Origin: Candidatus Egerieisoma sp.
Lineage (GTDB): Bacteria > Bacillota > Clostridia > UBA1212 > UBA1255
NCBI GenBank assembly: GCA_045580735.1
Contig: JAZNOJ010000067.1
Span: 1 to 59,541, forward strand
Direction: 5' to 3'
Length of the DNA: 59,541 nt
Positions 15,918 to 33,823 of the stretch are shown here, in pieces (within the stretch, counting starts at the first letter, position 1; each line of letters starts with the position of its first letter). Under the pieces are notes generated by a model. That model had not been told where the DNA came from, searched no databases, and worked only from the letters and a program-made list of their open reading frames with translations. Position numbers and translations under genes: made by a program.

Positions 15918-15949
15918 ACCGGAGCCTCGAAGGGTTCCGGTTTTCTTTT
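15918..15949 (+). terminator. Rho-independent terminator
   Basis: Stem ACCGGAGCC (15918-15926) / GGTTCCGGT (15933-15941, one G-U pair), followed by TTTTCTTTT. Confidence 0.7.
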
Positions 15950-15990: not shown

Positions 15991-16019
15991 TTGACAATTT
16001 TGTTTGTATGTGTGATAAT
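15991..16019 (+). promoter_or_regulatory. Sigma-A-type promoter with extended -10, upstream of the dehydrogenase/fumarase/Hdr-Frd unit
   Basis: TTGACA (15991-15996), 17-nt spacer, TGtGATAAT (16011-16019). Confidence 0.6.
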
Positions 16020-16096
16020 AAAGTGTACGTTTAAACGTTGATTTCTTGTGCTTAAAAATAAATAGCACATAAAAAATTATAGAAAAGAGGATGCAT

Positions 16097-17044
16097 ATGA
16101 GTAAGGTCACAATTATAGGTGCCGGCAGCGTCGGCTCAACGATTGCATATACGATAGCAGTAAAAGGTATTGCTTCAGAGGTTGTGCTTATCGATATTAA
16201 TGAAGAAAAGGCTAGAGGCGAAGCTATGGATATTATCCAAGGAACTCCGTTTTGCAGTCCATTAACAGTTTATGCTGGAACATATGAAGATGCAAAGGAT
16301 TCTGATATTGTTGTAATTACATCGGGACTTCCAAGAAAAGAAGGTCAGACTAGATTAGACCTTGCCCAAACAAATGTAAATGTAATGAAACAGATTGCTC
16401 CGGAGCTTGCAAAGTATGCACCTAATGCTTTTTATATTATAGTAAGTAATCCTGTAGATATTATGACATATGCATTTATGAAATATTCAGGACTTCCTAA
16501 TAATAAGATTATTGGTTCTGGAACAATTCTTGATACAGCAAGACTTCGTTTTTATCTTTCAGACCATTTTGGCGTAAGCCAAAAGAATATTCATGCTTAT
16601 GTAATGGGTGAGCATGGAGATTCAGCTTTCATTCCTTGGTCACTTGCTAAAGTTGCTGCCATCGGAATTGAAGATTATTGTAAAGGAATCAAGTATACAG
16701 GAAAGGATGTAGTTACTCTTCCTGATCATGATGAGGTTCTTAAGTATGTTCGTACATCAGGTGGACAAATTATAAAAGACAAGAGAGCGACTTATTATGG
16801 AGTTTCAATGTCAGTATGTAGTGTTATTGAATCATTGTTCACAAGGAAGGATTATATTATGACAATTTCTTCTATGATGAATGGCGAATATGGTTTGAAT
16901 GATGTATGTCTCAGCCATCTTTTCGTACTTTGTATGGATGGAGTAAAGGGCTGTGTAACACCAACATTATTAGATAGTGAAGTAGAGCTTATGCATAAGA
17001 GCGGAAATGTTCTTAAGGATATGATTTCAAAGCTTCAATTTTAA
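16097..17044 (+). CDS. LDH/MDH-family NAD-dependent 2-hydroxyacid dehydrogenase; specificity residue predicts malate dehydrogenase (LDH-like MDH) rather than lactate dehydrogenase
   Basis: KVTIIGAGSVGS ... LIDI ... SNPVD ... GSGTILDTARLR ... GEHGDS. The substrate loop GLPRKEGQTRLDL has Arg (nt 16334-16336) where LDHs have Gln102. Confidence 0.85.
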   Translation: MSKVTIIGAGSVGSTIAYTIAVKGIASEVVLIDINEEKARGEAMDIIQGTPFCSPLTVYAGTYEDAKDSDIVVITSGLPRKEGQTRLDLAQTNVNVMKQIAPELAKYAPNAFYIIVSNPVDIMTYAFMKYSGLPNNKIIGSGTILDTARLRFYLSDHFGVSQKNIHAYVMGEHGDSAFIPWSLAKVAAIGIEDYCKGIKYTGKDVVTLPDHDEVLKYVRTSGGQIIKDKRATYYGVSMSVCSVIESLFTRKDYIMTISSMMNGEYGLNDVCLSHLFVLCMDGVKGCVTPTLLDSEVELMHKSGNVLKDMISKLQF

Positions 17045-17081: not shown

Positions 17082-18446
17082 ATGGATTATCGTATTGAAC
17101 GCGATTCGATGGGCGAAATGCAAGTACCAGCGGATCGTTATTGGGCCGCACAGACCCAAAGAAGTTTTCAAAACTTTAAAATTGGCGGAGAGATAATGCC
17201 TCGTGAGATTACTCATGCGTTTGGTATTTTGAAGAAGGCAGCAGCTATTGCCAATTATAATTTGGGGAAAATGGATGATGAAAAGAAGGAAACAATTTGT
17301 AAAGCATGTGACGAAGTAATTGCTGGAAATTTGAATGATCATTTTCCTTTGGTAGTTTGGCAAACAGGAAGCGGAACCCAATCAAATATGAATGCAAATG
17401 AAGTAATTGCAAACAAAGGTAATGAAATTTGCGGAAAGAAGCTTCTCCATCCTAATGATCATATTAACATGTCACAAAGCTCGAATGATACTTTCCCTAC
17501 AGCAATGCATATTGCAGCGGTAATAGGTATAGAAGACAAGCTTTTCCCAGCAATGGATACTTTTATCGAGACATTGAAGCGTCTTGAAAAGGAAAATGAC
17601 GATATAGTAAAAAGTGGACGTACACATCTTCAAGATGCTACACCTGTAAAGTTTTCACAGGAAATCAGTGGCTGGAGAAACATGATAGAAAAGACAAAGG
17701 GAATGCTTGAAGCAGCACTTCCTGGTCTTAAGGAATTGGCACTTGGTGGCACAGCAGTAGGTACAGGTTTAAATGCTCCTAAAGCTTTCGGTGCTGAGGT
17801 TGCTAAGGTTGTATCTGAGCTTACAGGTAAAAATTTTGTTACTGCAGATAACAAATTCCACGCTCTTACATCAAAGGATGAGTTGGTATTTGCTCATGGC
17901 GCTTTAAAGGCTCTTGCAGCAGATCTTATGAAGATAGCAAATGATGTACGTTGGCTTGCAAGTGGTCCTAGATGTGGACTTGGGGAAATATTTATTCCTG
18001 AAAATGAGCCAGGAAGCTCTATTATGCCTGGAAAGGTTAATCCTACACAATGTGAATCAATGACTATGGTTGCAGTTCAGGTTATAGCTAACGATGTTGC
18101 AGTTGGTATGGCAGCTTCACAGGGTAATTTTGAGCTCAATGTATTCATGCCTGTTCTTATTTATAACTTCCTCCAGTCAGTTCGTCTTTTAGCTGACGGA
18201 ATTCGTTCTTTCAATGACAATTGTGTAACAGGAATCACAGCAAACAGAGAAAAAATGAAACATAATTTGTATAATTCTTTGATGCTTGTAACAGCTCTTA
18301 ATCCATATATAGGATATGATAATGCAGCTAAGACAGCAAAGAAGGCATATAAAGAAAACATCTCATTAAAAGAAGCGTGTGTAGCGCTTGGCTTCCTCAC
18401 TGCAGAAAAATTTGATGAAGTGTTCAAGCCAGAGCAGATGGTATAA
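17082..18446 (+). CDS. fumC: Class II fumarate hydratase
   Basis: GSSIMPGKVNPTQCE signature (fumarase-type rather than aspartase-type), with AGGAGG 8 nt upstream. Confidence 0.9.
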   Translation: MDYRIERDSMGEMQVPADRYWAAQTQRSFQNFKIGGEIMPREITHAFGILKKAAAIANYNLGKMDDEKKETICKACDEVIAGNLNDHFPLVVWQTGSGTQSNMNANEVIANKGNEICGKKLLHPNDHINMSQSSNDTFPTAMHIAAVIGIEDKLFPAMDTFIETLKRLEKENDDIVKSGRTHLQDATPVKFSQEISGWRNMIEKTKGMLEAALPGLKELALGGTAVGTGLNAPKAFGAEVAKVVSELTGKNFVTADNKFHALTSKDELVFAHGALKALAADLMKIANDVRWLASGPRCGLGEIFIPENEPGSSIMPGKVNPTQCESMTMVAVQVIANDVAVGMAASQGNFELNVFMPVLIYNFLQSVRLLADGIRSFNDNCVTGITANREKMKHNLYNSLMLVTALNPYIGYDNAAKTAKKAYKENISLKEACVALGFLTAEKFDEVFKPEQMV

Positions 18447-18467: not shown

Positions 18468-19259
18468 ATGAATATGACTTACAGTTATTATCCCGGATGC
18501 ACATTGAAAACAAAAGCAAAAGATTTAGATCGTTACGCCAGAGTTTCCGCCGAAGCTCTAGGCGTTACTCTTGCTGAAATAGAAGATTGGCAATGCTGCG
18601 GAGCAGTATATCCTTTAGCTTTAGACGAAATTGCTACAAAGCTGTCAGCAGTTCGTGCACTTGATAGTGCAAAGAAGGAAGGAAGAGATTTAATTACATT
18701 ATGCTCTGCTTGTCATCATGTTATAAAAAGAGTAAATAATGATATGCTTACTAATGATGACATCCGCACAAAAGTAAATAATTATTTAAAACTAGACACT
18801 GACTACGTCGGTGAAACTAATGTTATTCACTATTTAGAAATGCTCAGAGATGAGGTTGGATTTGATAAGATTAAAGAGGCAGTTACAAATCCTCTTAAAG
18901 GAAGAAAAATAGCTGCATATTATGGTTGCTTGTTACTTAGACCTGCGAAGGTAATGCAATTTGATAATCCTGAAAATCCTACAATTCTTGAGGATTTCAT
19001 TAAGGCAATTGGTGCAACACCTGTTATAACAGGATACCGTAATGAATGTTGTGGTGGGTATGTAGCATTAGAGGATAAATCAATTCCTCAAAAGCGTGCT
19101 AATATGATTCTTGAAGAAGCTATAGCTAAAGGAGCAGATACTGTTATTACAGCATGTCCTTTGTGCTTGTATAATCTTGAAGCCAATAGCACAATTACGG
19201 AAAAACCAGCCATTTGCTATTTTACAGAGTTACTTGCCGAGGCTCTCGGATTGAAATAA
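18468..19259 (+). CDS. hdrB: HdrB-like protein with two CCG domains (heterodisulfide reductase subunit B / SdhE family)
   Basis: Two C..CCG..CxxC modules: PGC...QCCGA...LCSACHH and YGC...ECCGG...ACPLCLYN. The ATG at 18474 has better RBS spacing. Confidence 0.8.
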   Translation: MNMTYSYYPGCTLKTKAKDLDRYARVSAEALGVTLAEIEDWQCCGAVYPLALDEIATKLSAVRALDSAKKEGRDLITLCSACHHVIKRVNNDMLTNDDIRTKVNNYLKLDTDYVGETNVIHYLEMLRDEVGFDKIKEAVTNPLKGRKIAAYYGCLLLRPAKVMQFDNPENPTILEDFIKAIGATPVITGYRNECCGGYVALEDKSIPQKRANMILEEAIAKGADTVITACPLCLYNLEANSTITEKPAICYFTELLAEALGLK

Positions 19260-19271
19260 GGAGGGGTATTT

Positions 19272-19664
19272 GTGACGGTTAACGAAAAAGAGCTTGCAGA
19301 GCGCATAGTTCGTATCAGCGGCGTGAATACAAAAAAATGTATGAAATGCGGAAAATGTTCCGGAACTTGTCCTTCATTTGATGAAATGGAATATCATCCA
19401 CATCAATTCGTTTCGATGGTTGAAAAGGGACAAATTAAAAAATTAATGGATTCTAAATCAATATGGACATGTCTTTCTTGTTTTGCATGTATTGAAAGAT
19501 GTCCAAGAAGTGTTGAACCTGCAAAGCTTATTGAAGCTGTTCGTCTTTGTGTAATTAGACAGCAGGGAGAGAATCATTTAAAAGCGAATGCAGTGCCTGA
19601 GAAATTAGATGAAAATATTCCTCAGCAGGCAATAGTAAGTGCATTCAGAAAATACAGTAAATAA
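19272..19664 (+). CDS. hdrC: HdrC-like 2x[4Fe-4S] ferredoxin subunit
   Basis: CMKCGKCSGTCP and CLSCFACIERCP motifs; GTG start 12 nt after the hdrB stop. Confidence 0.8.
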   Translation: MTVNEKELAERIVRISGVNTKKCMKCGKCSGTCPSFDEMEYHPHQFVSMVEKGQIKKLMDSKSIWTCLSCFACIERCPRSVEPAKLIEAVRLCVIRQQGENHLKANAVPEKLDENIPQQAIVSAFRKYSK

Positions 19665-19680
19665 CCGGTATAGATTGGAA

Positions 19681-21675
19681 GTGAATAAATTGCAAAAAAT
19701 CGGAGTATTTGTATGTTGGTGCGGCAGTAATATCGCAGGCACCGTAGATGTAGAAAGAGTAGCTCAGGCTGTAGCAAATGAGCCGGGTGTTGTTATTTCA
19801 ACAGATTATCAATATATGTGTTCTGAAGCCGGTCAGCTCAAGATTAGACAGGCAATTAAGGATTATGGACTTACAGGTATTGTAGTATGTTCATGTTCTC
19901 CTCGTATGCATGAGGCTACATTCCGCAAAACTGCACAAGCAGCAGGAATAAACCCATATATGGTTGAAATTGCTAACATTCGTGAGCAATGTTCATGGAT
20001 TCATAAGGATAAGGATGAGGGAACAGAAAAAGCAATTATTTTGGCTAAGGCGGCTATTGCTAAGCTTCAGCTTAATACACCACTCACAGCTGGTGAAAGT
20101 GCAGTAACAAAAAGAGCACTCGTTATTGGTGGTGGTATAGCTGGTATTCAGACAGCTCTTGATGTTGCTGATGCAGGATACGAGGTTGATATTGTTGAAA
20201 AATCACCAACCATCGGTGGTAAGATGGCTCAGCTTGATAAAACATTCCCAACACTTGACTGTGCGGCATGTATTTTGACACCAAAAATGGTTGATGCCTC
20301 AGCTCATGAAAAGATTAATCTCTTTACATATAGTGAGGTAGAAGCAGTTAGTGGATTTGTTGGTAATTTCAAGGTTAAAATCAGAAAAAAGGCAAGACGT
20401 GTAAAAGCAGACCTTTGTACAGGTTGCGGAGTATGCACAGAAAAATGTCCTTCAAGAAAGGCGCCTAACGAGTTTAACCAAGGCCTTAATAAAAGAGGCG
20501 CAATTTATATTCCTTTTGCACAGGCTATACCAAATGTTCCTGTTATTGACCCTGAATACTGTGTTAAATTAAAAACAGGAAAATGTGGACTTTGTGCAAG
20601 TGTTTGTCCTTCAAAGGCAATTGATTTTGAACAACAGGATGAGATAATTGAGAGAGAGTACGGTGCAATCGTTGCTGCTACTGGTTATAGACCAATATCT
20701 TTAGAGAATTTCGAAGAATTTGGATATGCTCAAAATAAAGACGTAATCACATCGCTTGAGCTCGAGCGCCTTATGAATGCTGCAGGACCTACAAAGGGTG
20801 TACTCCTTCGTCCTTCAGATAATGAACATCCACATGAAATCGTATTTGTACAGTGTGTAGGTTCAAGAGATACATCAGGCTGTGGTAAACCATATTGCTC
20901 AAAAATTTGTTGTATGTATACAGCTAAACATGCAATGATGATTCGTGATAAATATCCTGATACAAAGGTACATGTATTCTATATTGATGTTAGAACACCT
21001 GGTAAAAATTTCGATGAATTTTATCGCAGAGCTGTTGAAGAATACGGTGTAGATTATATAAAAGGTATGGTAGGTAAGGTTGTTGAAAAGGATGGCAAGC
21101 TTATTGTTCAAGGTTCAGATCTTATCGCTAATGAACAGGTTAAGATAGAAGCAGATATGGTAGTTCTGGCAACTGCAATTGAGCCTGATCCAAGTGTTAA
21201 GAATCTTGCTACAATGCTTACAGCAAGTATTGATACAAACAACTTCTTAACAGAGGCTCATGCTAAGCTTCGTCCTGTAGAGAGTCCTACAGCAGGCGTA
21301 TTCCTTTCAGGTGTATGCCAAGGTCCTAAAGACGTTCCTGAAACAGTTGCACAGGCAAGTGCAGCTGCAGCGAAGGTTATTGGCCTTTTAGCTAAAGACA
21401 AGCTCACATGTAATCCATGTGTTGCAAATTCTAATGAGCTTCTCTGTAATGGATGCTCACAGTGTGCTAATGTTTGTCCTTATGGAGCTATTGATTATAT
21501 AAATAAAGAAGTAAATGACCATGGAAAGAGAGAAGTTCGTCGCATTGCACAGGTTAATGAAGCAGTGTGTCAGGGCTGTGGTGCTTGTACAGTAACATGT
21601 CCTTCAGGCGCTATGGATCTTAAGGGCTTTACAACAAGACAAATTATGGCGGAGGTTGACGCAATATGCAAATAA
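19681..21675 (+). CDS. hdrA: HdrA-like FAD-dependent iron-sulfur flavoprotein
   Basis: N-terminal KIGVFVCWCGSNI; VIGGGIAGIQTALDVADAGYEVDIVEK...TLDCAACILTPKM; four CxxCxxCxxxCP motifs. The start is uncertain: GTG 19681, TTG 19690 or ATG 19639. Confidence 0.85.
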   Translation: MNKLQKIGVFVCWCGSNIAGTVDVERVAQAVANEPGVVISTDYQYMCSEAGQLKIRQAIKDYGLTGIVVCSCSPRMHEATFRKTAQAAGINPYMVEIANIREQCSWIHKDKDEGTEKAIILAKAAIAKLQLNTPLTAGESAVTKRALVIGGGIAGIQTALDVADAGYEVDIVEKSPTIGGKMAQLDKTFPTLDCAACILTPKMVDASAHEKINLFTYSEVEAVSGFVGNFKVKIRKKARRVKADLCTGCGVCTEKCPSRKAPNEFNQGLNKRGAIYIPFAQAIPNVPVIDPEYCVKLKTGKCGLCASVCPSKAIDFEQQDEIIEREYGAIVAATGYRPISLENFEEFGYAQNKDVITSLELERLMNAAGPTKGVLLRPSDNEHPHEIVFVQCVGSRDTSGCGKPYCSKICCMYTAKHAMMIRDKYPDTKVHVFYIDVRTPGKNFDEFYRRAVEEYGVDYIKGMVGKVVEKDGKLIVQGSDLIANEQVKIEADMVVLATAIEPDPSVKNLATMLTASIDTNNFLTEAHAKLRPVESPTAGVFLSGVCQGPKDVPETVAQASAAAAKVIGLLAKDKLTCNPCVANSNELLCNGCSQCANVCPYGAIDYINKEVNDHGKREVRRIAQVNEAVCQGCGACTVTCPSGAMDLKGFTTRQIMAEVDAICK

Positions 21676-22112
21676 ATGAAAACGACAAAGAATTTAAACC
21701 GTTGATTGTTGCATTTTGCTGTAACTGGTGTAGTTACGCAGGTGCAGACCTAGCAGGCTCAAGCAGACTTTCATACCCTGCAAATGTAAAGGTAATTCGT
21801 GTTCCTTGTTCATGCCGCGTTAACCCAATGTTCATTTTACGTGCATTCCAAAGAGGTGCCGACGGAGTTATTATTGCCGGATGTCACCCTGGAGATTGCC
21901 ATTACACATCGGGTAACTATTTTGCAAGAAGAAGAATGACACTATTATTCAGTATGCTTGATTATTTAGGAATAGAAAAAGGCAGAACAAGAGTGGAATG
22001 GATTTCCGCTGCTGAGGGTGCTAAGTTCTCTGCAACAATGAACGAATTTGTAGAAACTATCCACAATTTAGGACCTAATAAGAAATTGGAGGATTTGAGA
22101 TGCAAAGAATAA
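21666..22112 (+). CDS. mvhD: MvhD/FlpD-like iron-sulfur protein (methyl-viologen-reducing hydrogenase delta subunit family)
   Basis: FCCNWCSYAGADLAG ... RVPCSCRV ... GCHPGDCHY motifs; overlaps hdrA by 10 nt. Confidence 0.85.
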   Translation: MQINENDKEFKPLIVAFCCNWCSYAGADLAGSSRLSYPANVKVIRVPCSCRVNPMFILRAFQRGADGVIIAGCHPGDCHYTSGNYFARRRMTLLFSMLDYLGIEKGRTRVEWISAAEGAKFSATMNEFVETIHNLGPNKKLEDLRCKE

Positions 22113-23098
22113 GTGAAGAAATTTTATCAAAATGCCGTAGTTTATTAGAAGACGGTACAGCTGACAGAGTAATGGGCTGGGAAAATGGTGAGTTTTATTA
22201 TGATGTAACACCTGCTGTTTTCACTAAAGATAATTTGGATAATATGATTTACGATGATTTCTGTGCATCAAACCAGAGCAAGTATTTCATTGCAGAATCC
22301 AAAAAAGAAGGAAAAATAGTAGCACTTTTAAAGCCATGTGACACATACAGCTTTAATCAGCTTTTGAAAGAAAACAGAGTCAATCGTGATAATGTATATG
22401 TTTTGGGTATTCCATGTGATGGTAAAATTGATGTTCAGAAAGCTGCTACTTTAGGCATCAAGGGAATTACCGGAGTAAAGTCTGTTGGAGACGAGGTGGT
22501 TTTTGAAACAATCTACGGAGAAAAGACTTGTGCAAAGAACGATGTTTTATTTGAAAAGTGTATGGCCTGCAAAGGAAAGAAACACGTTGTTTATGATGCG
22601 TTGACAAATGAAGATAAAGAGCCTGAAGAAGCAGTGCCAAATGACCTCTTTGGAAATCGCTTTGCATACATTGAAAATATAGAACATATGACTCCGGATG
22701 AGCGTTTTGAATTTTGGAGAAATGAGCTTTCAAGATGTATACGCTGTAACGCTTGTCGTAATGTATGTCCTGCTTGTTCATGTCTTACATGTGTGTTTGA
22801 CAATCCTAAATCAGGAGTTGACAGCAAGGCAAATACAGATGATTTTGAAGAAAATCTCTTCCATATCATCAGAGCATTCCACGTAGCAGGAAGATGTACA
22901 GACTGTGGTGAGTGTACAAGAGTTTGTCCTCAAAATATTCCGCTTCATTTACTTAATCGTAAGTTTATTAAAGATATTAACGAACTTTATGGTGAATATC
23001 AAGCAGGTGCGGATATTGAGCTTGGAATGCCACTTACATCTTATACAAAGCAAGATGCAGAGCCAAGTGTAGTTTATGAGAGAGGCGGTAATAAATGA
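22100..23098 (+). CDS. 4Fe-4S dicluster protein (polyferredoxin-like electron-transfer subunit)
   Basis: CIRCNACRNVCPACSC and CTDCGECTRVCP motifs; overlaps mvhD by 13 nt. Confidence 0.7.
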   Translation: MQRISEEILSKCRSLLEDGTADRVMGWENGEFYYDVTPAVFTKDNLDNMIYDDFCASNQSKYFIAESKKEGKIVALLKPCDTYSFNQLLKENRVNRDNVYVLGIPCDGKIDVQKAATLGIKGITGVKSVGDEVVFETIYGEKTCAKNDVLFEKCMACKGKKHVVYDALTNEDKEPEEAVPNDLFGNRFAYIENIEHMTPDERFEFWRNELSRCIRCNACRNVCPACSCLTCVFDNPKSGVDSKANTDDFEENLFHIIRAFHVAGRCTDCGECTRVCPQNIPLHLLNRKFIKDINELYGEYQAGADIELGMPLTSYTKQDAEPSVVYERGGNK

Positions 23099-24147
23099 TG
23101 TATAAAATAGCTAAAGACCGTTTACCTGAATTATATGCTGCTGTTTCTGCTGTTAAGAACATCTATCTTCCTATTGAAAATGCAAATCAATGCCTTTTTG
23201 AAAAATACGAAGATGGTTGCAATGTAAATATTGATTGTCTTAAGACAGTAAAATCAGCAAAGGAATTATTCTTCCCACAGAGTGAAAATCTTATTTCATT
23301 TAAAGTAAGTGGTAAGGATATAGATATTATAGAAGACAGAGATCCTGCTGAGCCCTTTGTAATCTTCGGCGTTCGTGCTTGTGATGCCAAGAGCTTTAGC
23401 ATTTTGGATACTGTATTTTTAAGTGAACCCGTTGACACATTCTATAAAAGAAGAAGAGAAAACGGTGTAATCGTAACAATGGCTTGTAACGAACCTGAAG
23501 AAACATGTTTCTGTGGTGCATTCGGTGTAGACGCAGCTAATCCAGTAGGTGGAGACGTTACAACATGGCTTTCGGGAGATACACTTTACTGGAAGGCTGA
23601 GACAGCAAAGGGTGAGGAGCTTACAGAGTTCTTAAGTGGAATTCTTGTTTCTGCTGACGACAGTGACGAAAAGAAGGTTGAGGAAACTAAGGCTGCCATT
23701 GCAGAAATACTTGCAAAGCTTCCTTTGAAGGATTTAGACCTTTCTTACTTTAGTGGTGAGAATTTAACAACAAAGCTAAATGATGTATTTTATGCTGAAC
23801 AATGGCAGGAATTGTACAAGGCTTGTCTCGGTTGCGGAACTTGTACATTTGTATGTCCTACTTGTCAATGCTATGATATTAGAGATTTTGACACAGGTCA
23901 TGGTATAAAGAGATTTCGTTGCTGGGATTCATGTATGTTCTCTGATTTTACAAAGTGTGCACACGGAAACCCACGTACAAGTCAGCTTGAGCGCTTCCGT
24001 CAAAGATTTATGCACAAATTAGTTTATTATCCTGCAAATAATGGAGGAGAATATTCATGTGTAGGCTGCGGAAGATGCTTATCAAAGTGTCCTGTATCAT
24101 TGAATATTGTAAAAGTAATTAAATCCTTTGGAGGTGAATCGAAATGA
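23095..24147 (+). CDS. 4Fe-4S dicluster protein resembling anaerobic sulfite reductase subunit A / sulfhydrogenase beta subunit
   Basis: CLGCGTCTFVCPTCQCYD ... CVGCGRCLSKCP; ATGA start/stop overlap with the upstream gene. Confidence 0.7.
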   Translation: MMYKIAKDRLPELYAAVSAVKNIYLPIENANQCLFEKYEDGCNVNIDCLKTVKSAKELFFPQSENLISFKVSGKDIDIIEDRDPAEPFVIFGVRACDAKSFSILDTVFLSEPVDTFYKRRRENGVIVTMACNEPEETCFCGAFGVDAANPVGGDVTTWLSGDTLYWKAETAKGEELTEFLSGILVSADDSDEKKVEETKAAIAEILAKLPLKDLDLSYFSGENLTTKLNDVFYAEQWQELYKACLGCGTCTFVCPTCQCYDIRDFDTGHGIKRFRCWDSCMFSDFTKCAHGNPRTSQLERFRQRFMHKLVYYPANNGGEYSCVGCGRCLSKCPVSLNIVKVIKSFGGESK

Positions 24148-24971
24148 ATCCTGATGTATTAATACCTCAGCTCGGAGTAGTAACTGACATTCGTCAAGAT
24201 ACTCCCGACGTAAAAACATTTCGCGTAAATGCTCCCGGTGGTGGTAAATGCTTTGAGCATATGCCTGGTCAATGTGCAATGCTTTCTATACCAGGAGTTG
24301 GTGAAGCAATGTTTTCAATAACATCTTCTCCTACAAATAAAGAATTCATGGAATTTAGTATCAAGCGTTGCGGACAGCTTACAGAGTGGCTTCATCAGAT
24401 GGAGGTAGGTCAGACTGTTACAATCCGTGGACCATATGGACGTAACTTCCCAGTAGAAGATGAGCTTAAGGGTAAGGATCTTCTTTTCATAGCAGGTGGT
24501 ATCGGTCTTGCACCTCTTCGTAGTGTAATTGATTACTGTCTTGCTAACAGAGCAAATTACGGAAAAATTGACATCGTATATGGCTCACGTTCGGCTGATG
24601 ATTTGGTTGATTACGATCAAATCTGCAATGATTGGATGAATGCTGAAAATGTTAATGTTCACCTTACAATCGATAGACCTCAAGAAGGTTGGGATGGTCA
24701 CGTAGGATTCGTTCCTGCATATGTTAAGGAATTGAATTTTGATACAAATAAGACAGCTCTTCTCTGTGGACCACCGATAATGATTAAATTTACTTTGGCA
24801 TCACTCCAAGAGATGGGTTATGACAAAACTCAAGTTTATACAACAATGGAGCTTCGTATGAAGTGTGGCATTGGTAAATGTGGCAGATGTAATATCGGTT
24901 CTAAATATGTTTGCAAAGACGGACCTGTTTTCCGTTGCGATCAGTTAGACGAACTACCTAATGAATATTAA
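24144..24971 (+). CDS. FAD/NAD(P)-binding oxidoreductase with C-terminal [2Fe-2S] (AsrB / sulfhydrogenase gamma / PyrK family)
   Basis: LLFIAGGIGLAPLRS dinucleotide motif and CGIGKCGRCNIGSKYVCKDGPVF cluster motif; ATGA overlap with the upstream gene. Confidence 0.8.
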   Translation: MNPDVLIPQLGVVTDIRQDTPDVKTFRVNAPGGGKCFEHMPGQCAMLSIPGVGEAMFSITSSPTNKEFMEFSIKRCGQLTEWLHQMEVGQTVTIRGPYGRNFPVEDELKGKDLLFIAGGIGLAPLRSVIDYCLANRANYGKIDIVYGSRSADDLVDYDQICNDWMNAENVNVHLTIDRPQEGWDGHVGFVPAYVKELNFDTNKTALLCGPPIMIKFTLASLQEMGYDKTQVYTTMELRMKCGIGKCGRCNIGSKYVCKDGPVFRCDQLDELPNEY

Positions 24972-24986
24972 TTATTTTTACAGAAA

Positions 24987-25676
24987 GTGAAGGCAAAAGA
25001 TATGGAAAATATGGTAAATGTATTTATAATGGGCAAAAAATATTCCGTACCGTCAGAGCTTACAATTATGGACGCTATGGAATATGCCGGATATCAGCTT
25101 ATTCGCGGATGCGGATGCCGTAACGGTTTCTGCGGCGCTTGTGCTTCAGTTTACAGAATAAAAGGCGATCCTGAACTTAAGGTATGTCTTGCATGTCAAA
25201 CTAAGGTAGAAGAGAATATGTACGTAGCACAAATTCCTTTCTTCCCAGTTGTTAAGCAAACTTATGATATAAATGAGGTTCGTCCTAATGAGAGCATCAT
25301 GATGCAGCTTTATCCAGAAATTTATAGCTGTATAGGATGTAACGCTTGTACAAAGAGCTGTACACAGAGCCTTAATACAATGCAGTATATCGCATATGCA
25401 CAAAGAGGTGAGTATGCTAAATGTGCAGAAGAATCATTTGACTGCGTAATGTGTGGAATTTGTTCATCACGTTGTCCTGCTCAAATCTCACACCCACAGG
25501 TAGCTCTTTTAGCAAGAAGACTTACAGGTAAATATATAGCACCTAAGGCAGATCATCTCGAAAAGAGAACAGCAGAAATTGATAACGGTGACTTTGAAGC
25601 TGCAATGAAGGAGCTTATGGCAAAACCAATTGATGAGCTCAAAGATATGTATAATCATAGAGATATAGAAAAATAA
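24987..25676 (+). CDS. Succinate dehydrogenase/fumarate reductase iron-sulfur subunit-like protein
   Basis: N-terminal [2Fe-2S] pattern CGCRNGFCGAC...C, then CIGCNACTKSC and CVMCGICSSRCP. The start is GTG 24987 or ATG 25002. Confidence 0.7.
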   Translation: MKAKDMENMVNVFIMGKKYSVPSELTIMDAMEYAGYQLIRGCGCRNGFCGACASVYRIKGDPELKVCLACQTKVEENMYVAQIPFFPVVKQTYDINEVRPNESIMMQLYPEIYSCIGCNACTKSCTQSLNTMQYIAYAQRGEYAKCAEESFDCVMCGICSSRCPAQISHPQVALLARRLTGKYIAPKADHLEKRTAEIDNGDFEAAMKELMAKPIDELKDMYNHRDIEK

Positions 25677-25689
25677 GGAGGACGGAACA

Positions 25690-27318
25690 ATGAGCGACGC
25701 ATTTTACACACAAGAGATGCTGGATTCAATTAAAAAGGTAGAAGCTAGCCGTGCTTCACGTATCGGCTTTGAACCCAGAAGAATGACAGCAGAGGAAAAG
25801 GATGCTTTACTTGCTAAATTCCATCCTGATTACAAGAAAGAAAACTTTGCAACACTTGCAATGGGACCAAATAAAGGAGAACAGGTTCCTACAGAATTGG
25901 CTGCACTTTTACAAGCACACAGCCGTATTAATCCTGCAGATATTGATCTTACACAAGTAGATTATGATGTAGATGTTCTTATTATTGGTGGTGGCGGCGC
26001 AGGTTCTGCAGCAGCAGTTATGGCACATGAAAATGGCGCAAATGTTATGGTTGTAACAAAGCTTCGTCACGGCGATGCTAACACAATGATGGCAGAGGGC
26101 GGAATTCAGGCTGCTGATAAAGAAAACGACTCACCAATGACTCACTATGTTGATGCTTTAGGAGGCGGACACTTCAAGAATGTACCTGAACTTTTATATA
26201 AGCTCGTTACAGACGGCCCTGGAGCTGTAAAATGGCTCAATGAATTGGGTGTAATGTTCGATAAAGAAGAAGACGGTACAATGGTAACAACACACGGCGG
26301 CGGAACTTCAAGAAAGAGAATGCATGCTGCAAAAGACTACTCAGGTGCTGAAATCATGAGAGTTCTTCGTGATGAAGTTATTAACAGAAAGATTCCGGTT
26401 GTTGATTATACAGCTGCAGTTGAGCTTATTCTTGATGAAAATGGCAAGGCAGCAGGTGCTGTACTTATGAACATGGAAACAAAAGAAATTCTCATCGCAA
26501 GAGCTAAAACAGTTGTTATAGCTACAGGTGGTGCCGGAAGACTTCACTATCAAGGCTTCCCAACATCTAACCACTACGGTGCTACAGCAGACGGACTTGT
26601 TCTTGCTTACCGTGTAGGCGCTCCACTTTTATATGCGTATACACTTCAATACCATCCTACAGGTGTTGCTTTCCCAGCACAGATTTTCGGTGCATTGGTT
26701 ACTGAAAAAGTTCGTTCATTAGGTGCAATGCTTATTAACGTCGAAGGCGAAGCATTTATGCATCCGTTAGAAACACGTGACGTATCAGCTGCTTCAATTA
26801 TTCGTGAATGCAGCGAAAGAGGAAAAGGTGTTCCTACTCCTGATGGTTACGGAATTTGGCTCGATACTCCAATGATTGAAGAAATTCATGGAAAGGGTGC
26901 TATTGAAAAGAGAATTCCTGCTATGCTCCGTATGTTTATGAAGTATGGCTACGATATGAGAGAGAAACCAATTCTTATCTATCCTACACTTCACTATCAA
27001 AACGGTGGTATTAAAATTTCTGCTGATGGTCAGTCAGAAGTTGAAAACCTCTTCGTTGCAGGTGAGGCAGTTGGAGGAATCCATGGTGAAAACAGACTTA
27101 TGGGTAACTCATTACTCGATATCATTGTATTTGGTCGTAACGCTGGTGTTCATGCAGCTGCAAAGGCTAAGACAATAGATGAGGTAGGAAAGCTTACGCT
27201 TGATCACGTTGCTAAATTTGACAAAGAGCTTGCTGATGCTGGTATCGTTACAGATAATGTTTCACCACAGCTTCTCCCAAGATATACTCATGGCAACCCC
27301 AAGTATGAGGCAAAATAA
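25690..27318 (+). CDS. Fumarate reductase/succinate dehydrogenase flavoprotein-like subunit (FAD_binding_2 family)
   Basis: DVLIIGGGGAGSAAA, YHPTG, LHYQNGGI and GEAVGGIHGENRLMGNSLLD motifs; GGAGGA RBS. Confidence 0.8.
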   Translation: MSDAFYTQEMLDSIKKVEASRASRIGFEPRRMTAEEKDALLAKFHPDYKKENFATLAMGPNKGEQVPTELAALLQAHSRINPADIDLTQVDYDVDVLIIGGGGAGSAAAVMAHENGANVMVVTKLRHGDANTMMAEGGIQAADKENDSPMTHYVDALGGGHFKNVPELLYKLVTDGPGAVKWLNELGVMFDKEEDGTMVTTHGGGTSRKRMHAAKDYSGAEIMRVLRDEVINRKIPVVDYTAAVELILDENGKAAGAVLMNMETKEILIARAKTVVIATGGAGRLHYQGFPTSNHYGATADGLVLAYRVGAPLLYAYTLQYHPTGVAFPAQIFGALVTEKVRSLGAMLINVEGEAFMHPLETRDVSAASIIRECSERGKGVPTPDGYGIWLDTPMIEEIHGKGAIEKRIPAMLRMFMKYGYDMREKPILIYPTLHYQNGGIKISADGQSEVENLFVAGEAVGGIHGENRLMGNSLLDIIVFGRNAGVHAAAKAKTIDEVGKLTLDHVAKFDKELADAGIVTDNVSPQLLPRYTHGNPKYEAK

Positions 27319-27349: not shown

Positions 27350-27400
27350 CGCTATACGTATATTTTAATTACAAACAAAGTATACGTATAGCGAGTTTTT
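27350..27400 (+). terminator. Rho-independent terminator closing the Hdr/Frd unit
   Basis: 13-bp perfect stem CGCTATACGTATA (27350-27362) / TATACGTATAGCG (27381-27393), then a T5 run. Confidence 0.7.
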
Positions 27401-27455: not shown

Positions 27456-28742
27456 ATGGAGATTATTGATAAGATTTTTTCATTAGGTTCTGTTGGAGGA
27501 ACTACTATTGTATTATGCGGAGCAATGCTTATTGCATTTATAGGTTATGCTTTAGGTAGCATTAAAATTAAAGGCTTGTCATTAGGTACAGCGGGTGTAT
27601 TTTTAATGGCTCTTTTATTTGGATATTTGTTCACACTTCCAGTAATTGAAAATATTCCTGTAATTGGAAAGTTTTTCATAGAAAGTGCAGAAGCCACTGC
27701 TGTTAGTAAATACAAAATGCTTAGTTCAATTGGACTAGTGCTATTTGTAACTTCTGTTGGATTTATTGCAGGTCCAAGCTTCTTCAAAAACTTAAAGAAA
27801 AATGCTAAATCATACGTTCTTTTAGGTGTATTAATAGTAGGCTCAGGCGTTCTTGTTACTGTTTTATTCTCACTTCTTTACGGCAGTGCATATGGAACAG
27901 GTGTTATGTCAGGTGCTTTAACAAGTACACCGGGATTTTCAGCATCACAAGAAGCAGTTGAAGCAGCTAATCCAAGTCAACTAGGGCTTGTAGCATTAGG
28001 TCACGCTGTAGCTTATCCATTTGGTGTTGTAGGTGTTGTACTCTTTGTACAATTAATTCCTAAATTATTAAAAGCAGATATGTCTAAAGAGCGTGAACTT
28101 ATGAAAGTAGGTATTGAGGCTCCAAAAGAAGAAAAGAGTATATCAAAAAAAGCTTTTGAATTAGATGAATTTGGACTTGGAGCATTTGGTCTTGCAGTTG
28201 TACTTGGAATACTTCTTGGTTCAATAAAGATTCCTCTTTCAGCCTCAGGATATGCAGAGGGTGCAGCTACATTTTCACTCGGAAATACAGGCGGTCCATT
28301 GATAATGGCTTTAATTTTAGGTCACTTTGGAAGAATTGGAAAATTAAGCTTAAAGGTCCCTGATAAAACATTAAAGGTATTTAGAGAATTTGGATTAATG
28401 TTATTCCTTTTAGGTGCAGGCGTTGAAGGTGGCGTTGAATTAGTAGACCAAATTAAGGCTTCTGAAAGTGGAGCTATGATACTTGTTTATGGCTTAATCG
28501 GAGGAGTATTGATGACAACTGTGCCGATGTTAGTTGGCTATTTCTTTGCAAGAAAGGTTCTTAAAATGAGTATGCTTAATGCACTTGGTTCAATTACTGG
28601 TGGTATGACAAGTACACCTGCCCTTGGTACATTGATTGGTGTTGCAGGTACGGACGATGTTGCAGCAGCATATGCCTCAACTTATCCCGTTGCACTAGTG
28701 CTCGTGGTACTTGCCTCACAGCTTATTGTAGTTTTGATATAA
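27456..28742 (+). CDS. AAE (aspartate:alanine exchanger / YidE-YbjL-SucE) family transporter, short form without RCK_C domains
   Basis: Two homologous hydrophobic halves: GSIKIKGLSLGTAGVFLMALLFG and GSIKIPLSASG...GNTGGPLIMALILG. They are joined by a short charged linker. Confidence 0.7.
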   Translation: MEIIDKIFSLGSVGGTTIVLCGAMLIAFIGYALGSIKIKGLSLGTAGVFLMALLFGYLFTLPVIENIPVIGKFFIESAEATAVSKYKMLSSIGLVLFVTSVGFIAGPSFFKNLKKNAKSYVLLGVLIVGSGVLVTVLFSLLYGSAYGTGVMSGALTSTPGFSASQEAVEAANPSQLGLVALGHAVAYPFGVVGVVLFVQLIPKLLKADMSKERELMKVGIEAPKEEKSISKKAFELDEFGLGAFGLAVVLGILLGSIKIPLSASGYAEGAATFSLGNTGGPLIMALILGHFGRIGKLSLKVPDKTLKVFREFGLMLFLLGAGVEGGVELVDQIKASESGAMILVYGLIGGVLMTTVPMLVGYFFARKVLKMSMLNALGSITGGMTSTPALGTLIGVAGTDDVAAAYASTYPVALVLVVLASQLIVVLI

Positions 28743-28796
28743 TGCTTAATTTTTGATTGCAGAAATATCGAATAAAGTTTAAAAGATACTAAAACA

Positions 28797-28838
28797 AGAG
28801 ACTACATACCTATTTTATTTAGGAAGGTAGTCTCTTTT
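28797..28838 (+). terminator. Rho-independent terminator
   Basis: Stem AGAGACTAC (28797-28805) / GTAGTCTCT (28827-28835) followed by TTTT. Confidence 0.65.
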
Positions 28839-31975: not shown

Positions 31976-33823
31976 TTAGCTGCTAAAATCAAAACAGAAT
32001 CTTCCACCGGGAGCTACATCTCCATTTATATAAAAATCCATAATGTCTCCTTCTTTTTGCATATTGTCAGACCATTTAAAGCTAAAATCAAAGTTTTTTT
32101 CATCAAGCTTTAAAAGTCTTCGAGGAATTTCTATTTGGAGAATATTGTTTTTGATGCTGTATTTAAGCTCAGAGCTAATATTTTCCCAAAGCCATGTACC
32201 ATCTTCTGAAATACCTTTAGAGTGTTCAAGTATACAGCCTGTAGCAGTTGGATTAAGTCTGTTTACAATATAATCAAATCCTTCCCAATTATTACCATTA
32301 GAGGCATTTTTAGTTCTAATGAAAAGACGCATCCATGCTCTGTCATTAGGAGAAGACAATTTGTTGACTGTTGAAACATAAAAATAAATATTTGTGTTAT
32401 CGTAGGCAACCTTGGTAGTTACAATATCATTTCTCATTGTGTGATTCTCATAATGATAGCCTATATATCCATCGCAATCCCGTTCTCTTGTATTTCTTGT
32501 ATAGTGATTAAAGGAGTATATTTTATTCCATGGAGAAAGGTCGTCGGAATGAATGTCGATAGTTTCTTTTTTTACTATATTGTCTAAAGTGGTATTTTTA
32601 TCAGCTGCTCCTTTATATCTTCTTATATTAGATACAAGCTGGTAATAAAAATGATCCTTCAAACAGCCTTTTGTGGGTTCAATATCTCTACTGTATTCAT
32701 CTGTAAAGGCATCACAAAAACCTGAACATCTGCCTGCTGTCCATTCATTCCAACCTGTAACAAGTATAAAGTCAGGGTCACATTCAATTGCATAATCCCA
32801 TTGCTGTTGGAAATTTCTTCCGGCTAGCATAGAAAAATAATCTCTTTTATCAGCAGTAAATGTTTTATTGTTATAAGTATATGAATAAGAATAATTTTCA
32901 CCATTTTCATGTGAAGGAGCAGCAAAGCTGCGCCCCATAATGTGTTCTCCGGCAGCCATAAATGATAACTCGTATTTTAATGAGTCAGCATTTTGAGAAA
33001 CTCCCACAGATATTTCTTCAGGTCTTCCATCCTCAGTTAAACCAAATTTGCATTGAGGATAAACATTTAACCAACCCCAAAAGTTTGGATTTGACCCTCC
33101 TTGATTAAAGTATGTTGGGTCAATTTGTTTGAAAACGAATATTTCGTTTATTTCATTATGATATTTATATTCTACATTTTTTACATCATCAAATCCTAAA
33201 ATTAAATATTTATCATCAATTTTATATAATAAATCACGATATTCTGGATTAGAATACCATCTTTCGTAGATTAATGTTAGATGGTGTAATCTGTTTTCTG
33301 TTTTAAAAAGACTAAACCAAAATGAAATTTTTGGAACTTTTATGCCATCCTTTTTTGCTTCACTAAAAACCTTGAAAATAATGTCAATTCCATTTTCCCA
33401 TGAATGTTGGCCATTAGTCCAATCAAAGAAAATAAAATCCACTCCTGCATCTGCCAAAAGCTCTACATGTTTTCTTATAACATATTCATCCATAGTATTG
33501 TAAAAACCATATAATGGCTCATTCCAAAAATATCCAGGTGTGTATTTGTCTTCGATATTTTCTTCCCAAAAAGGATTGTTTTTAACATCTATTTTGGCTT
33601 CGGGATATTTTTCTAACAAATCTGTAATATTTACAGGTTTTCTTTTAGTAGCAAATTCTGTATGCCATGCATGATAAAATATACCAACCTCACGCTTGTG
33701 GTTAGGTCTGTTTTTAGGAGCTTTTTTATAGGTGCTATCACAGCGACCAAGTCCATCAACATAGCTCCAGGTTTGGGGATTAATATCCATATTTGAATTT
33801 TCTAAGATCGTTTTACTTTCCAC
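31976..33823 (-). CDS. Putative TIM-barrel glycoside-hydrolase-like protein with C-terminal beta-sandwich domain; paralog A, no signal peptide
   Basis: 615 aa; GTG start with AAAGGA RBS. Conserved blocks are GIFYHAWHTEF, FWNEPLYGFY, LLADAGVDFIFFDWTNG and VTGWNEWTA (NEW motif as in GH99/WbsX-like enzymes). Family assignment is tentative. Confidence 0.5.
   Translation of the reverse strand: MESKTILENSNMDINPQTWSYVDGLGRCDSTYKKAPKNRPNHKREVGIFYHAWHTEFATKRKPVNITDLLEKYPEAKIDVKNNPFWEENIEDKYTPGYFWNEPLYGFYNTMDEYVIRKHVELLADAGVDFIFFDWTNGQHSWENGIDIIFKVFSEAKKDGIKVPKISFWFSLFKTENRLHHLTLIYERWYSNPEYRDLLYKIDDKYLILGFDDVKNVEYKYHNEINEIFVFKQIDPTYFNQGGSNPNFWGWLNVYPQCKFGLTEDGRPEEISVGVSQNADSLKYELSFMAAGEHIMGRSFAAPSHENGENYSYSYTYNNKTFTADKRDYFSMLAGRNFQQQWDYAIECDPDFILVTGWNEWTAGRCSGFCDAFTDEYSRDIEPTKGCLKDHFYYQLVSNIRRYKGAADKNTTLDNIVKKETIDIHSDDLSPWNKIYSFNHYTRNTRERDCDGYIGYHYENHTMRNDIVTTKVAYDNTNIYFYVSTVNKLSSPNDRAWMRLFIRTKNASNGNNWEGFDYIVNRLNPTATGCILEHSKGISEDGTWLWENISSELKYSIKNNILQIEIPRRLLKLDEKNFDFSFKWSDNMQKEGDIMDFYINGDVAPGGRFCFDFSS

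Follow-up and report, generated by a model that had tools for sequence, protein, structure and literature searches.

A conserved Flx-Hdr and FrdBA operon of gut Clostridia predicted to encode a cytoplasmic NAD(P)H-dependent fumarate reductase that may also reduce ferredoxin

How could a bacterium reduce fumarate in its cytoplasm, with neither a quinone nor a membrane anchor, and still gain energy from the reaction? This question is raised by a cluster of nine genes in Candidatus Egerieisoma sp. (Clostridia), on contig JAZNOJ010000067.1 of assembly GCA_045580735.1. The window, meaning the whole stretch of DNA that was analysed, is 59,541 nucleotides long. The nine genes are tightly spaced on its + strand and span 18468-27318. 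They encode a core resembling heterodisulfide reductase (HdrB, HdrC, HdrA and the adaptor MvhD), three donor proteins of the Flx type, and an iron-sulfur (Fe-S) protein and a flavoprotein related to FrdB and FrdA. The locus is best explained as a 'succinate operon' that would serve the reductive branch from oxaloacetate to exported succinate, quinone-independent and fully cytoplasmic. FrdBA is very probably a fumarate reductase module functionally linked to Flx-Hdr. The full bifurcating mechanism, in which fumarate is reduced with NAD(P)H in the cytoplasm and ferredoxin is reduced as well, at HdrA, has in our judgement somewhat better than an even chance of being correct.

What do the nine genes encode? 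A preliminary description made from the sequence had listed nine packed open reading frames on one strand and assigned them to Hdr, MvhD, polyferredoxin, FAD-NAD(P) and FrdBA families. The coordinates were confirmed, including the overlaps at 21666-21675 and 22100-22112 and the ATGA overlaps at 23095-23098 and 24144-24147, and profile hidden Markov model searches agree with the assignments gene by gene. The genes are as follows:

18468-19259, + strand: HdrB-like protein with two complete CCG motifs (2x CCG PF02754)
19272-19664, + strand: HdrC-like protein with 2x [4Fe-4S] (TIGR03290 E 5e-20; two CxxCxxCxxxCP motifs)
19690-21675, + strand: HdrA flavoprotein, with a predicted bifurcating flavin adenine dinucleotide (FAD) site and Fe-S clusters (HdrA2 model 796 bits)
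21666-22112, + strand: MvhD/FlxD [2Fe-2S] adaptor (FlpD/MvhD PF02662 E 1e-55)
22100-23098, + strand: FlxC-like Fe-S protein, a relative of FdhB in Fdh-Hdr complexes (two Cys4 motifs and CPACSC)
23095-24147, + strand: FlxB-like Fe-S protein of the sulfhydrogenase beta / AsrA type (Fer4_22 E 1e-29)
24144-24971, + strand: FlxA-like FAD/NAD(P)H-binding protein with [2Fe-2S] (FAD_binding_6, NAD_binding_1 and DHODB_Fe-S_bind)
25002-25676, + strand: FrdB-like Fe-S subunit (2Fe-2S domain and two Cys4 motifs)
25690-27318, + strand: FrdA-like flavoprotein with a predicted fumarate site (FAD_binding_2 PF00890 E 2e-66)

The FrdA-like protein carries an intact fumarate site. In an alignment with E. coli FrdA and NadB, the E. 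coli FrdA residues H232 (in HPT), T244/E245/R248, R287, H355 and R390 are kept, in the same order, as H322, T338/E339/R342, R363, H435 and R469. These residues are invariant across the subfamily in two alignments, and all four His/Arg residues that bind the dicarboxylate are among them. The histidine that holds covalent FAD (E. coli FrdA H44) is replaced by Asn131, which is also invariant in the subfamily, and the FAD is predicted to be non-covalent. Enzymes of this family with non-covalent FAD, such as His44 variants of FrdA and the soluble fumarate reductases, are poor at succinate oxidation. Because Asn131 stands in place of this histidine, fumarate reduction would be favoured over succinate oxidation.

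How closely is this protein related to known fumarate reductases? Its AlphaFold model, built from an alignment of two clades, has a predicted local distance difference test score (pLDDT) of 82 and a predicted template modelling score of 0.87; an earlier model from close homologues only reached pLDDT 58 and was discarded. In Foldseek the accepted model matches 1kf6_A and 1nek_A with E 1e-31 and a template modelling score of 0.67 over ~450 columns. The curated models TfrA (329 bits, cut-off 718), sdhA_frdA (266 bits) and nadB TIGR00551 (264 bits, cut-off 453) were compared. TfrA is the nearest. The protein is assigned to a separate subfamily because every curated model, fumarate reductase or nadB, scores far below its cut-off. 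Succ_DH_flav_C (PF02910) was not found in it, and the alignment stops ~50 residues past the FAD domain. At the other end there is a conserved N-terminal extension of 94 residues (25690-25971) with HPDY and GPNxGE motifs, of which HPD and GxNxG are invariant. AlphaFold folds this extension confidently (pLDDT 85-93). No Pfam family matches it, and the Foldseek alignment to FrdA/SdhA does not cover it; it may be a docking surface or a substitute for the C-terminal domain that is missing. A cyanobacterial member of the subfamily, 41% identical, also has the extension (P0137 cluster, WP_413360575.1, Prochlorococcus sp. MIT 1201).

The FrdB-like partner is more divergent. Its likely start is the ATG at 25002 rather than the GTG at 24987 of the mechanical open reading frame. 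A search of the PDB by sequence gave generic ferredoxin and RnfC matches only, and the curated SdhB/FrdB models score far below their cut-offs; sequence similarity is weak. Comparison of its family profile with E. coli FrdB by hhalign gave a probability of 96.1% (E 3e-9), with the three cluster motifs in register. The third motif has four cysteines (CVMCGICSSRCP), i.e., a fourth cysteine was gained at the [3Fe-4S] motif, which predicts a second [4Fe-4S] cluster in place of the usual [3Fe-4S]. The second [4Fe-4S] of type-E SdhB likewise replaces [3Fe-4S]. No CCG domain was found in the FrdB-like protein by Pfam search or motif scan. In one relative (P0122, 727 aa) the FrdB-like part (Fer2_4 and a Fer4 dicluster) is naturally fused to the FrdA-like part, and this fusion gives Rosetta-stone support for the pairing of the two proteins.

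Is there a complete Hdr core to which this pair could be linked? Cofactor motifs are present in every redox subunit of the cluster. HdrA has 661 residues and is a full-length homologue of methanogen HdrA 8rvu_a (693 bits, residues 3-659 on 13-652) and of the structurally solved 5odc_A. Four CxxCxxCxxxCP motifs had been counted in it; three are canonical, and the fourth is a variant (C291-x7-C-x2-C-x3-CP). The likely start of hdrA is the TTG at 19690, behind the ribosome-binding site GGAAGTG, rather than the mechanical GTG at 19639. In the HdrA2 fusion model, the part matched by MvhD/FlxD is C-terminal (642-775). The two motifs of the HdrC-like protein are CMKCGKCSGTCP and CLSCFACIERCP. In the HdrB-like protein both CCG motifs are complete, with ten cysteines (Cys 11/43/44/79/82 and 154/194/195/230/233), and two non-cubane [4Fe-4S] sites are predicted. 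This protein matches methanogen HdrB 8rvv_B/5odc_B with 125 bits and the type-E SdhE model with 142 bits (cut-off 500), the SdhE match being as good as the HdrB match.

The donor side points to a pyridine nucleotide. FlxA-like matches the gamma subunit of Pyrococcus sulfhydrogenase I (9nez_C, 206 bits), and FlxB-like matches ShyB (181 bits) and the beta subunit of the same enzyme (9nez_B, 143 bits); beta and gamma together form the NAD(P)H module of the Pyrococcus enzyme. From these matches FlxA-like is predicted to be the entry point of NAD(P)H. FlxC-like matches 7bkb_E/9t1s_M with 88-93 bits. Its N-terminal half has a weak, sub-threshold match to FrhB_FdhB_C (E 0.005) and might keep part of a flavin- or F420-binding fold. 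Both FlxC-like and FlxB-like carry CPxCxC. By domain composition, genes 4-7, which include MvhD, correspond to what was described as FlxABCD.

The nine proteins are soluble. No Kyte-Doolittle window of 19 residues reaches 1.6 in any of them, which bears out the earlier remark that long hydrophobic stretches and an FrdCD/SdhCD-type anchor are missing. The hydrophobicity scan found no membrane segments in any of the 11 operon proteins, and the only membrane protein nearby is a transporter of the AAEx family. A classical membrane-bound Frd/Sdh (FrdABCD or SdhABCD) was rejected, the membrane anchor subunit being absent.

How might the electrons travel through such a complex? We infer the donor, the electron path and the bifurcation itself. 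NAD(P)H would be oxidised at the FAD of FlxA, and electrons would pass from the FlxA [2Fe-2S] through the FlxB and FlxC clusters to the MvhD/FlxD [2Fe-2S] and on to the FAD of HdrA. The HdrA flavin would bifurcate, sending one electron uphill to an external ferredoxin via the ferredoxin-domain clusters of HdrA. The second electron would run downhill by way of HdrC, both non-cubane clusters of HdrB and the three clusters of FrdB to the non-covalent FAD of FrdA and to fumarate. HdrB would act here as an electron wire to FrdB and not as a disulfide reductase. Two rounds would give 2 NADH + fumarate + Fd(ox) -> 2 NAD+ + succinate + Fd(red, 2 e-), where Fd is ferredoxin, and the reduced ferredoxin would be re-oxidised by Rnf or a hydrogenase. 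Textbook potentials of -320, +33, and -420 to -500 mV give a calculated free energy of about -33 to -49 kJ/mol for this reaction. Such a value is comparable to other flavin-based bifurcations.

Several observations fit this path. The gene order hdrB-hdrC-hdrA-flxD-flxC-flxB-flxA mirrors it, and MvhD and the FdhB-like FlxC are counterparts of the subunits that feed HdrA in Mvh-Hdr and Fdh-Hdr complexes. Along the model of TfrB, a single polypeptide, the FrdB-like (18-93), HdrC-like (123-226) and HdrB-like (415-485) proteins match one after another, and this Rosetta-stone pattern argues for FrdB-HdrC-HdrB wiring. By analogy, a link from HdrB to FrdB would also be expected because type-E Sdh pairs SdhAB with the HdrB-like SdhE, the protein matched by HdrB of the window.

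Does the neighbourhood say anything about the substrate? The unit is larger than the nine genes. Two genes precede the cluster and the transporter gene follows it, giving the order mdh-fumC-hdrBCA-flxDCBA-frdBA and then the transporter. The additional features are as follows:

15918-15941, + strand: terminator-like hairpin of the preceding gene, left boundary of the unit (10-bp stem, 6 GC pairs, T-run; -18.9 kcal/mol, z -4.2)
15991-16019, + strand: best sigma-70-like promoter match of the region (TTGACA-17-GATAAT with TG extension; 11/12 matches, top-ranked)
16091-17044, + strand: malate dehydrogenase of the lactate dehydrogenase (LDH) family (Ldh_1_N and Ldh_1_C; passes LDH and malate dehydrogenase NCBIfam models)
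17082-18446, + strand: class II fumarate hydratase FumC (TIGR00979 738 bits, equivalog cut-off 664.75; Lyase_1 and FumaraseC_C)
27350-27400, + strand: hairpin and T-run between frdA and the transporter gene (perfect 13-bp, AT-rich; -21 kcal/mol, z -5.9)
27456-28742, + strand: AAEx (AspT/YidE/YbjL) family membrane transporter (Asp-Al_Ex PF06826 x2, E 5e-62)
28796-28838, + strand: terminator-like hairpin 3' of the transporter gene, from sequence (-18.5 kcal/mol, z -6.3)

The product of the first gene has an Arg at the position of LDH Gln102 (GLPRKEG), as do the products at 47/47 related loci. An Arg at LDH position 102 is a classical determinant of oxaloacetate specificity, and the product is predicted to be a malate dehydrogenase that turns oxaloacetate into malate. 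It passes the NCBIfam cut-offs for L-lactate dehydrogenase, and a wrong name from annotation pipelines is probable for this likely malate dehydrogenase. The transporter scores 147.5 bits with TIGR01625 (cut-off 72) and has 14 hydrophobic segments. Its family includes the succinate exporter SucE of Corynebacterium, and the protein is a candidate succinate exporter or C4-dicarboxylate exchanger. The FrdA-like protein is read as a fumarate enzyme also because it is flanked by fumarase, an Arg102 malate dehydrogenase and this transporter, which are syntenic in most relatives.

The genes from mdh to frdA probably form one transcription unit, because a terminator and the best promoter match lie 5' of mdh and there are hairpins behind both frdA and the transporter gene. 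The promoter is a match to the consensus only and lies 72 nt upstream of mdh. The spacers behind mdh and fumC are 37 and 21 nt. The hairpin at 27350-27400 may be a terminator or an attenuator, perhaps separating expression of the enzyme from that of the exporter.

How widespread is this arrangement? A genome scan with one genome per species confirmed at least 598 relatives. Synteny was counted among the best 80 of these, whose FrdA is 71-80% identical to that of the window; they are mostly metagenome-assembled genomes of gut and rumen Clostridia, and Christensenella tenuis NSJ-35 and Lachnospiraceae bacterium 50-23 are among the cultured carriers. Every locus with at least 7.4 kb of upstream DNA has the nine genes in collinear order (58/58). 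The preliminary description had proposed a survey of whether frdAB-like genes co-occur with hdrABC-mvhD, and at these 58 loci they do so without exception. Clustering of the nine genes is far beyond chance, as they are collinear in 58/58 loci. Where flanking DNA was sufficient, fumC lies upstream at 44/54 loci, mdh upstream at 46/54 and the transporter gene downstream at 41/63. The 58 collinear loci come from Clostridia of human, ruminant, chicken and mouse gut, with labels that include Christensenellaceae, Oscillospiraceae, Acutalibacteraceae and Lachnospiraceae. Operons 72-77% identical were also found in metagenome-assembled genomes labelled Treponema, Planctomycetota, Synergistaceae and Bacteroidaceae (L012, L018, L046, L053). 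These are either mis-binned Clostridia contigs or cases of horizontal transfer.

A second clade of the FrdA subfamily, 45-50% identical, is gammaproteobacterial (Ridgeia/Riftia symbiont, Sedimenticola, Thiorhodococcus). Its gene order is mdh-frdB-frdA-NuoF-like-korAB (L083:8408-16160 and L084; JGI metagenome contigs, P0370, 'endosymbiont of Ridgeia piscesae'), and the NuoF-like gene encodes Complex1_51K, SLBB and NADH_4Fe-4S domains. The arrangement suggests a simpler FrdAB-NuoF NADH:fumarate reductase. The FrdBA module seems to plug into different NADH-input modules.

Has such an enzyme been proposed before? A 'succinate operon' with fumarate hydratase, seven Flx-Hdr genes, two fumarate reductase genes and a putative succinate transporter was described in Pseudoclostridium thermosuccinogenes, where it comprises the genes CDQ83_RS03315-03365, and NADH oxidation was hypothesised to be coupled to the reduction of fumarate and ferredoxin (Koendjbiharie et al., 2020, PMC7282089). 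The same idea appeared earlier in a 2019 preprint (Koendjbiharie & van Kranenburg, as cited in PMC7282089). P. thermosuccinogenes makes succinate, and its operon is transcribed and up about 4-fold under CO2 limitation; in an old observation that fits the hypothesis, H2 abolishes succinate formation (PMC7282089). Likened by its published description, that operon has the same gene content, order and hypothesis as the one in the window, which adds an LDH-type mdh in front. P. thermosuccinogenes is a thermophile, and its published case is itself genomic and transcriptomic only; the window stems from a genome of mesophilic gut Clostridia with about 35% GC. The genome of P. thermosuccinogenes does not occur among the 80 best loci of the scan. 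For Ruminococcus champanellensis, a preprint mentions that STRING links HdrA with Sdh/Frd, and a 2026 survey still calls the link between Flx-Hdr and fumarate reductase 'suggested' (PMC13147460). The central proposal of the preliminary description, a soluble fumarate reductase linked to NAD(P)H and wired to Hdr/MvhD, is supported by every computational test run; the novelty that it implied falls away, as the idea is already published as a hypothesis. Demonstration of the activity and breadth in gut taxa would be new.

Other characterised or proposed systems share parts of this design. Judged by domain composition, FlxABCD-HdrABC of Desulfovibrio vulgaris has the same seven subunits, and it too was proposed to use NADH-driven bifurcation to ferredoxin and a high-potential acceptor (Ramos et al., 2015). 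The acceptor proposed there is the DsrC disulfide in ethanol/sulfate metabolism, whereas in the window FrdBA and the fumarase/malate dehydrogenase context point to fumarate. In the methanogen Mvh-Hdr and Fdh-Hdr complexes (5odc, 7bkb, 8rvu), HdrA, HdrB, HdrC and MvhD are clear homologues of the window's proteins, and FlxC-like is related to FdhB. The donor in those complexes is a hydrogenase or formate dehydrogenase and the acceptor is the CoM-S-S-CoB heterodisulfide of coenzymes M and B; the window has an NAD(P)H flavoprotein and a fumarate reductase module instead. TfrAB of Methanothermobacter is likewise soluble and anchor-free, and TfrA is the best-scoring curated model for FrdA-like. TfrB joins FrdB-like, dicluster and CCG modules that are split among FrdB, HdrC and HdrB in the window. 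Its donor is coenzyme M plus coenzyme B (CoM-SH and CoB-SH), which bacteria lack, and FrdA-like differs from TfrA in having no C-terminal domain and an N-terminal extension. Membership in TfrAB was rejected on scores of 329 bits for TfrA (cut-off 718) and 37 bits for TfrB (cut-off 385) and on the FrdB-like protein having no CCG domain.

The type-E SdhABE enzymes, such as methylmenaquinol:fumarate reductase, combine SdhAB with an HdrB-like CCG subunit, to which the window's HdrB-like protein is related as given above, but they are membrane-associated and quinone-linked, and HdrA, MvhD and Flx are missing from them. Among biochemically characterised enzymes, the nearest analogue in function, likened by description, is FrdABCDE of Hydrogenobacter thermophilus (Miura et al., 2008). 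As summarised in PMC13147460, it is a soluble fumarate reductase of five subunits that depends on NADH, cytoplasmic and without quinone or anchor; in that summary its genes lie at scattered loci, and neither an HdrABC/MvhD set nor bifurcation is reported.

Which other functions could account for the operon? One is a plain soluble NAD(P)H:fumarate reductase in which Flx and Hdr are merely a long electron wire to FrdAB and no ferredoxin is reduced. The step from NADH to fumarate is strongly exergonic alone, FrdBA of the gammaproteobacterial relatives has just one NADH-binding partner, a NuoF-like subunit, and lacks Hdr, and the soluble five-subunit enzyme of H. thermophilus is, by the account in PMC13147460, an NADH-dependent example. 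It is nevertheless unlikely. A complete HdrA of 661 residues with all ferredoxin-domain clusters, collinear with MvhD, HdrC and HdrB in 58/58 loci, would be hard to explain as wiring; this HdrA is a full-length homologue of known bifurcating HdrA, and inhibition of P. thermosuccinogenes succinate formation by H2 fits ferredoxin coupling (PMC7282089). A two-step route through thiols is rather improbable. Here Flx-Hdr would use NADH to reduce ferredoxin and a disulfide, either a small molecule or a DsrC-like protein, and a Tfr-like activity would re-oxidise the thiol with fumarate. Both complete CCG motifs are kept in HdrB, TfrA is the best NCBIfam match of FrdA-like (329 bits), and in PMC7282089 Flx-Hdr passes electrons to 'ferredoxin (and thiols)'. 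A CCG domain is missing from FrdB-like, however, and so FrdAB has no thiol-oxidising site, HdrB being the only CCG protein; the TfrA score is far under its cut-off, and profile searches of the operon genes found no thiol-carrier or DsrC-like gene within the operon.

The identity of the FrdA substrate can be questioned too. Action on L-aspartate, as in NadB, or on another unsaturated acid was considered because nadB and sdhA_frdA score nearly alike, some relatives are named 'L-aspartate oxidase' by JGI and NCBI, and every curated fumarate reductase model falls under its cut-off. This is very improbable. L-aspartate oxidase, which the preliminary description had itself raised as a refuting alternative, was rejected: nadB is far under its own cut-off, and His203 stands at the position of NadB Glu121, which we take to be the residue for the substrate amino group. 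An Fe-S partner, sometimes fused (P0122), is typical of Sdh/Frd and not of NadB; all four dicarboxylate-binding residues are conserved; and fumarase and malate dehydrogenase are co-transcribed and syntenic. Least probable of all is that the enzyme runs in reverse, oxidising succinate to fumarate by confurcation, driven by oxidation of reduced ferredoxin with NAD+ as acceptor, and feeding malate and oxaloacetate. Flavin-based bifurcating enzymes are reversible in principle, as are the mdh and fumC reactions, but the invariant Asn in place of the covalent-FAD histidine marks a type of enzyme that oxidises succinate poorly, and the only studied organism with the same architecture produces succinate (PMC7282089).

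Several points weigh against the bifurcating NAD(P)H:fumarate reductase. No hdr or flx homologues were found within 10 kb of the gammaproteobacterial frdBA genes (L083/L084). FrdBA, with a NuoF-like partner there, can therefore do without Hdr, and plain NADH:fumarate reduction is a viable function for it. A tfrAB/flxABCD-hdrABC/korABCD complex was proposed for tubeworm symbionts in 2019 (Rubin-Blum et al., PMC6315080); the published tfrAB/flx-hdr co-location was not reproduced within 10 kb at these two loci. As the preliminary description had supposed, no biochemical characterisation of an enzyme with this subunit set, or of any homologous complex, was found in the literature to 2026, and the support for FlxABCD-HdrABC itself is purely genetic. 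That FrdAB and HdrB are physically associated is suggested by gene order and analogy, and in that order frdBA adjoins flxA, not hdrB. A thiol or disulfide substrate of HdrB is possible, since both CCG motifs are complete and form the disulfide-reducing site in methanogens. The donor may be either NADH or NADPH, hence 'NAD(P)H'.

What would the bifurcating enzyme mean for its carriers? The locus is a real, well-conserved case of a predicted and uncharacterised enzyme type that is apparently common in gut Clostridia. The main added value is that the operon is not restricted to one thermophile; it is widespread and strictly conserved in gut Clostridia, with cultured carriers. If the mechanism holds, quinone-free fermenters would gain energy from fumarate reduction via reduced ferredoxin (Rnf or H2), i.e., they would benefit energetically as in fumarate respiration while needing neither quinones nor a membrane anchor, and their succinate output would be tied to the balance of NADH, ferredoxin and H2. 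The acceptor range of Hdr-type bifurcation would also be widened, with biotechnological relevance to succinate production. A bolder statement, which we hold to be a little less probable than its opposite, is that this is the first Hdr-type bifurcating enzyme with a C=C bond (fumarate) rather than a disulfide as acceptor, with HdrB purely a wire to docked FrdAB, and that it forms the main, so far unrecognised quinone-free route to succinate and ferredoxin/Rnf energy in many gut and rumen Clostridia. Succinate is a key metabolite in cross-feeding and host signalling, and a distinct enzyme for it would change metabolic reconstructions of the carriers. Pipelines label its pieces 'FAD-binding protein', 'L-aspartate oxidase', 'CoB-CoM heterodisulfide reductase' and 'L-lactate dehydrogenase'.

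The remainder of the window is ordinary chromosomal housekeeping and includes purL, proC, alaS and polA. Two large adjacent open reading frames on the - strand, at 31976-33823 (615 aa) and 33877-35898 (673 aa), match no Pfam family at E <= 1e-5 and sit in the window's only stretch of inverted GC skew.

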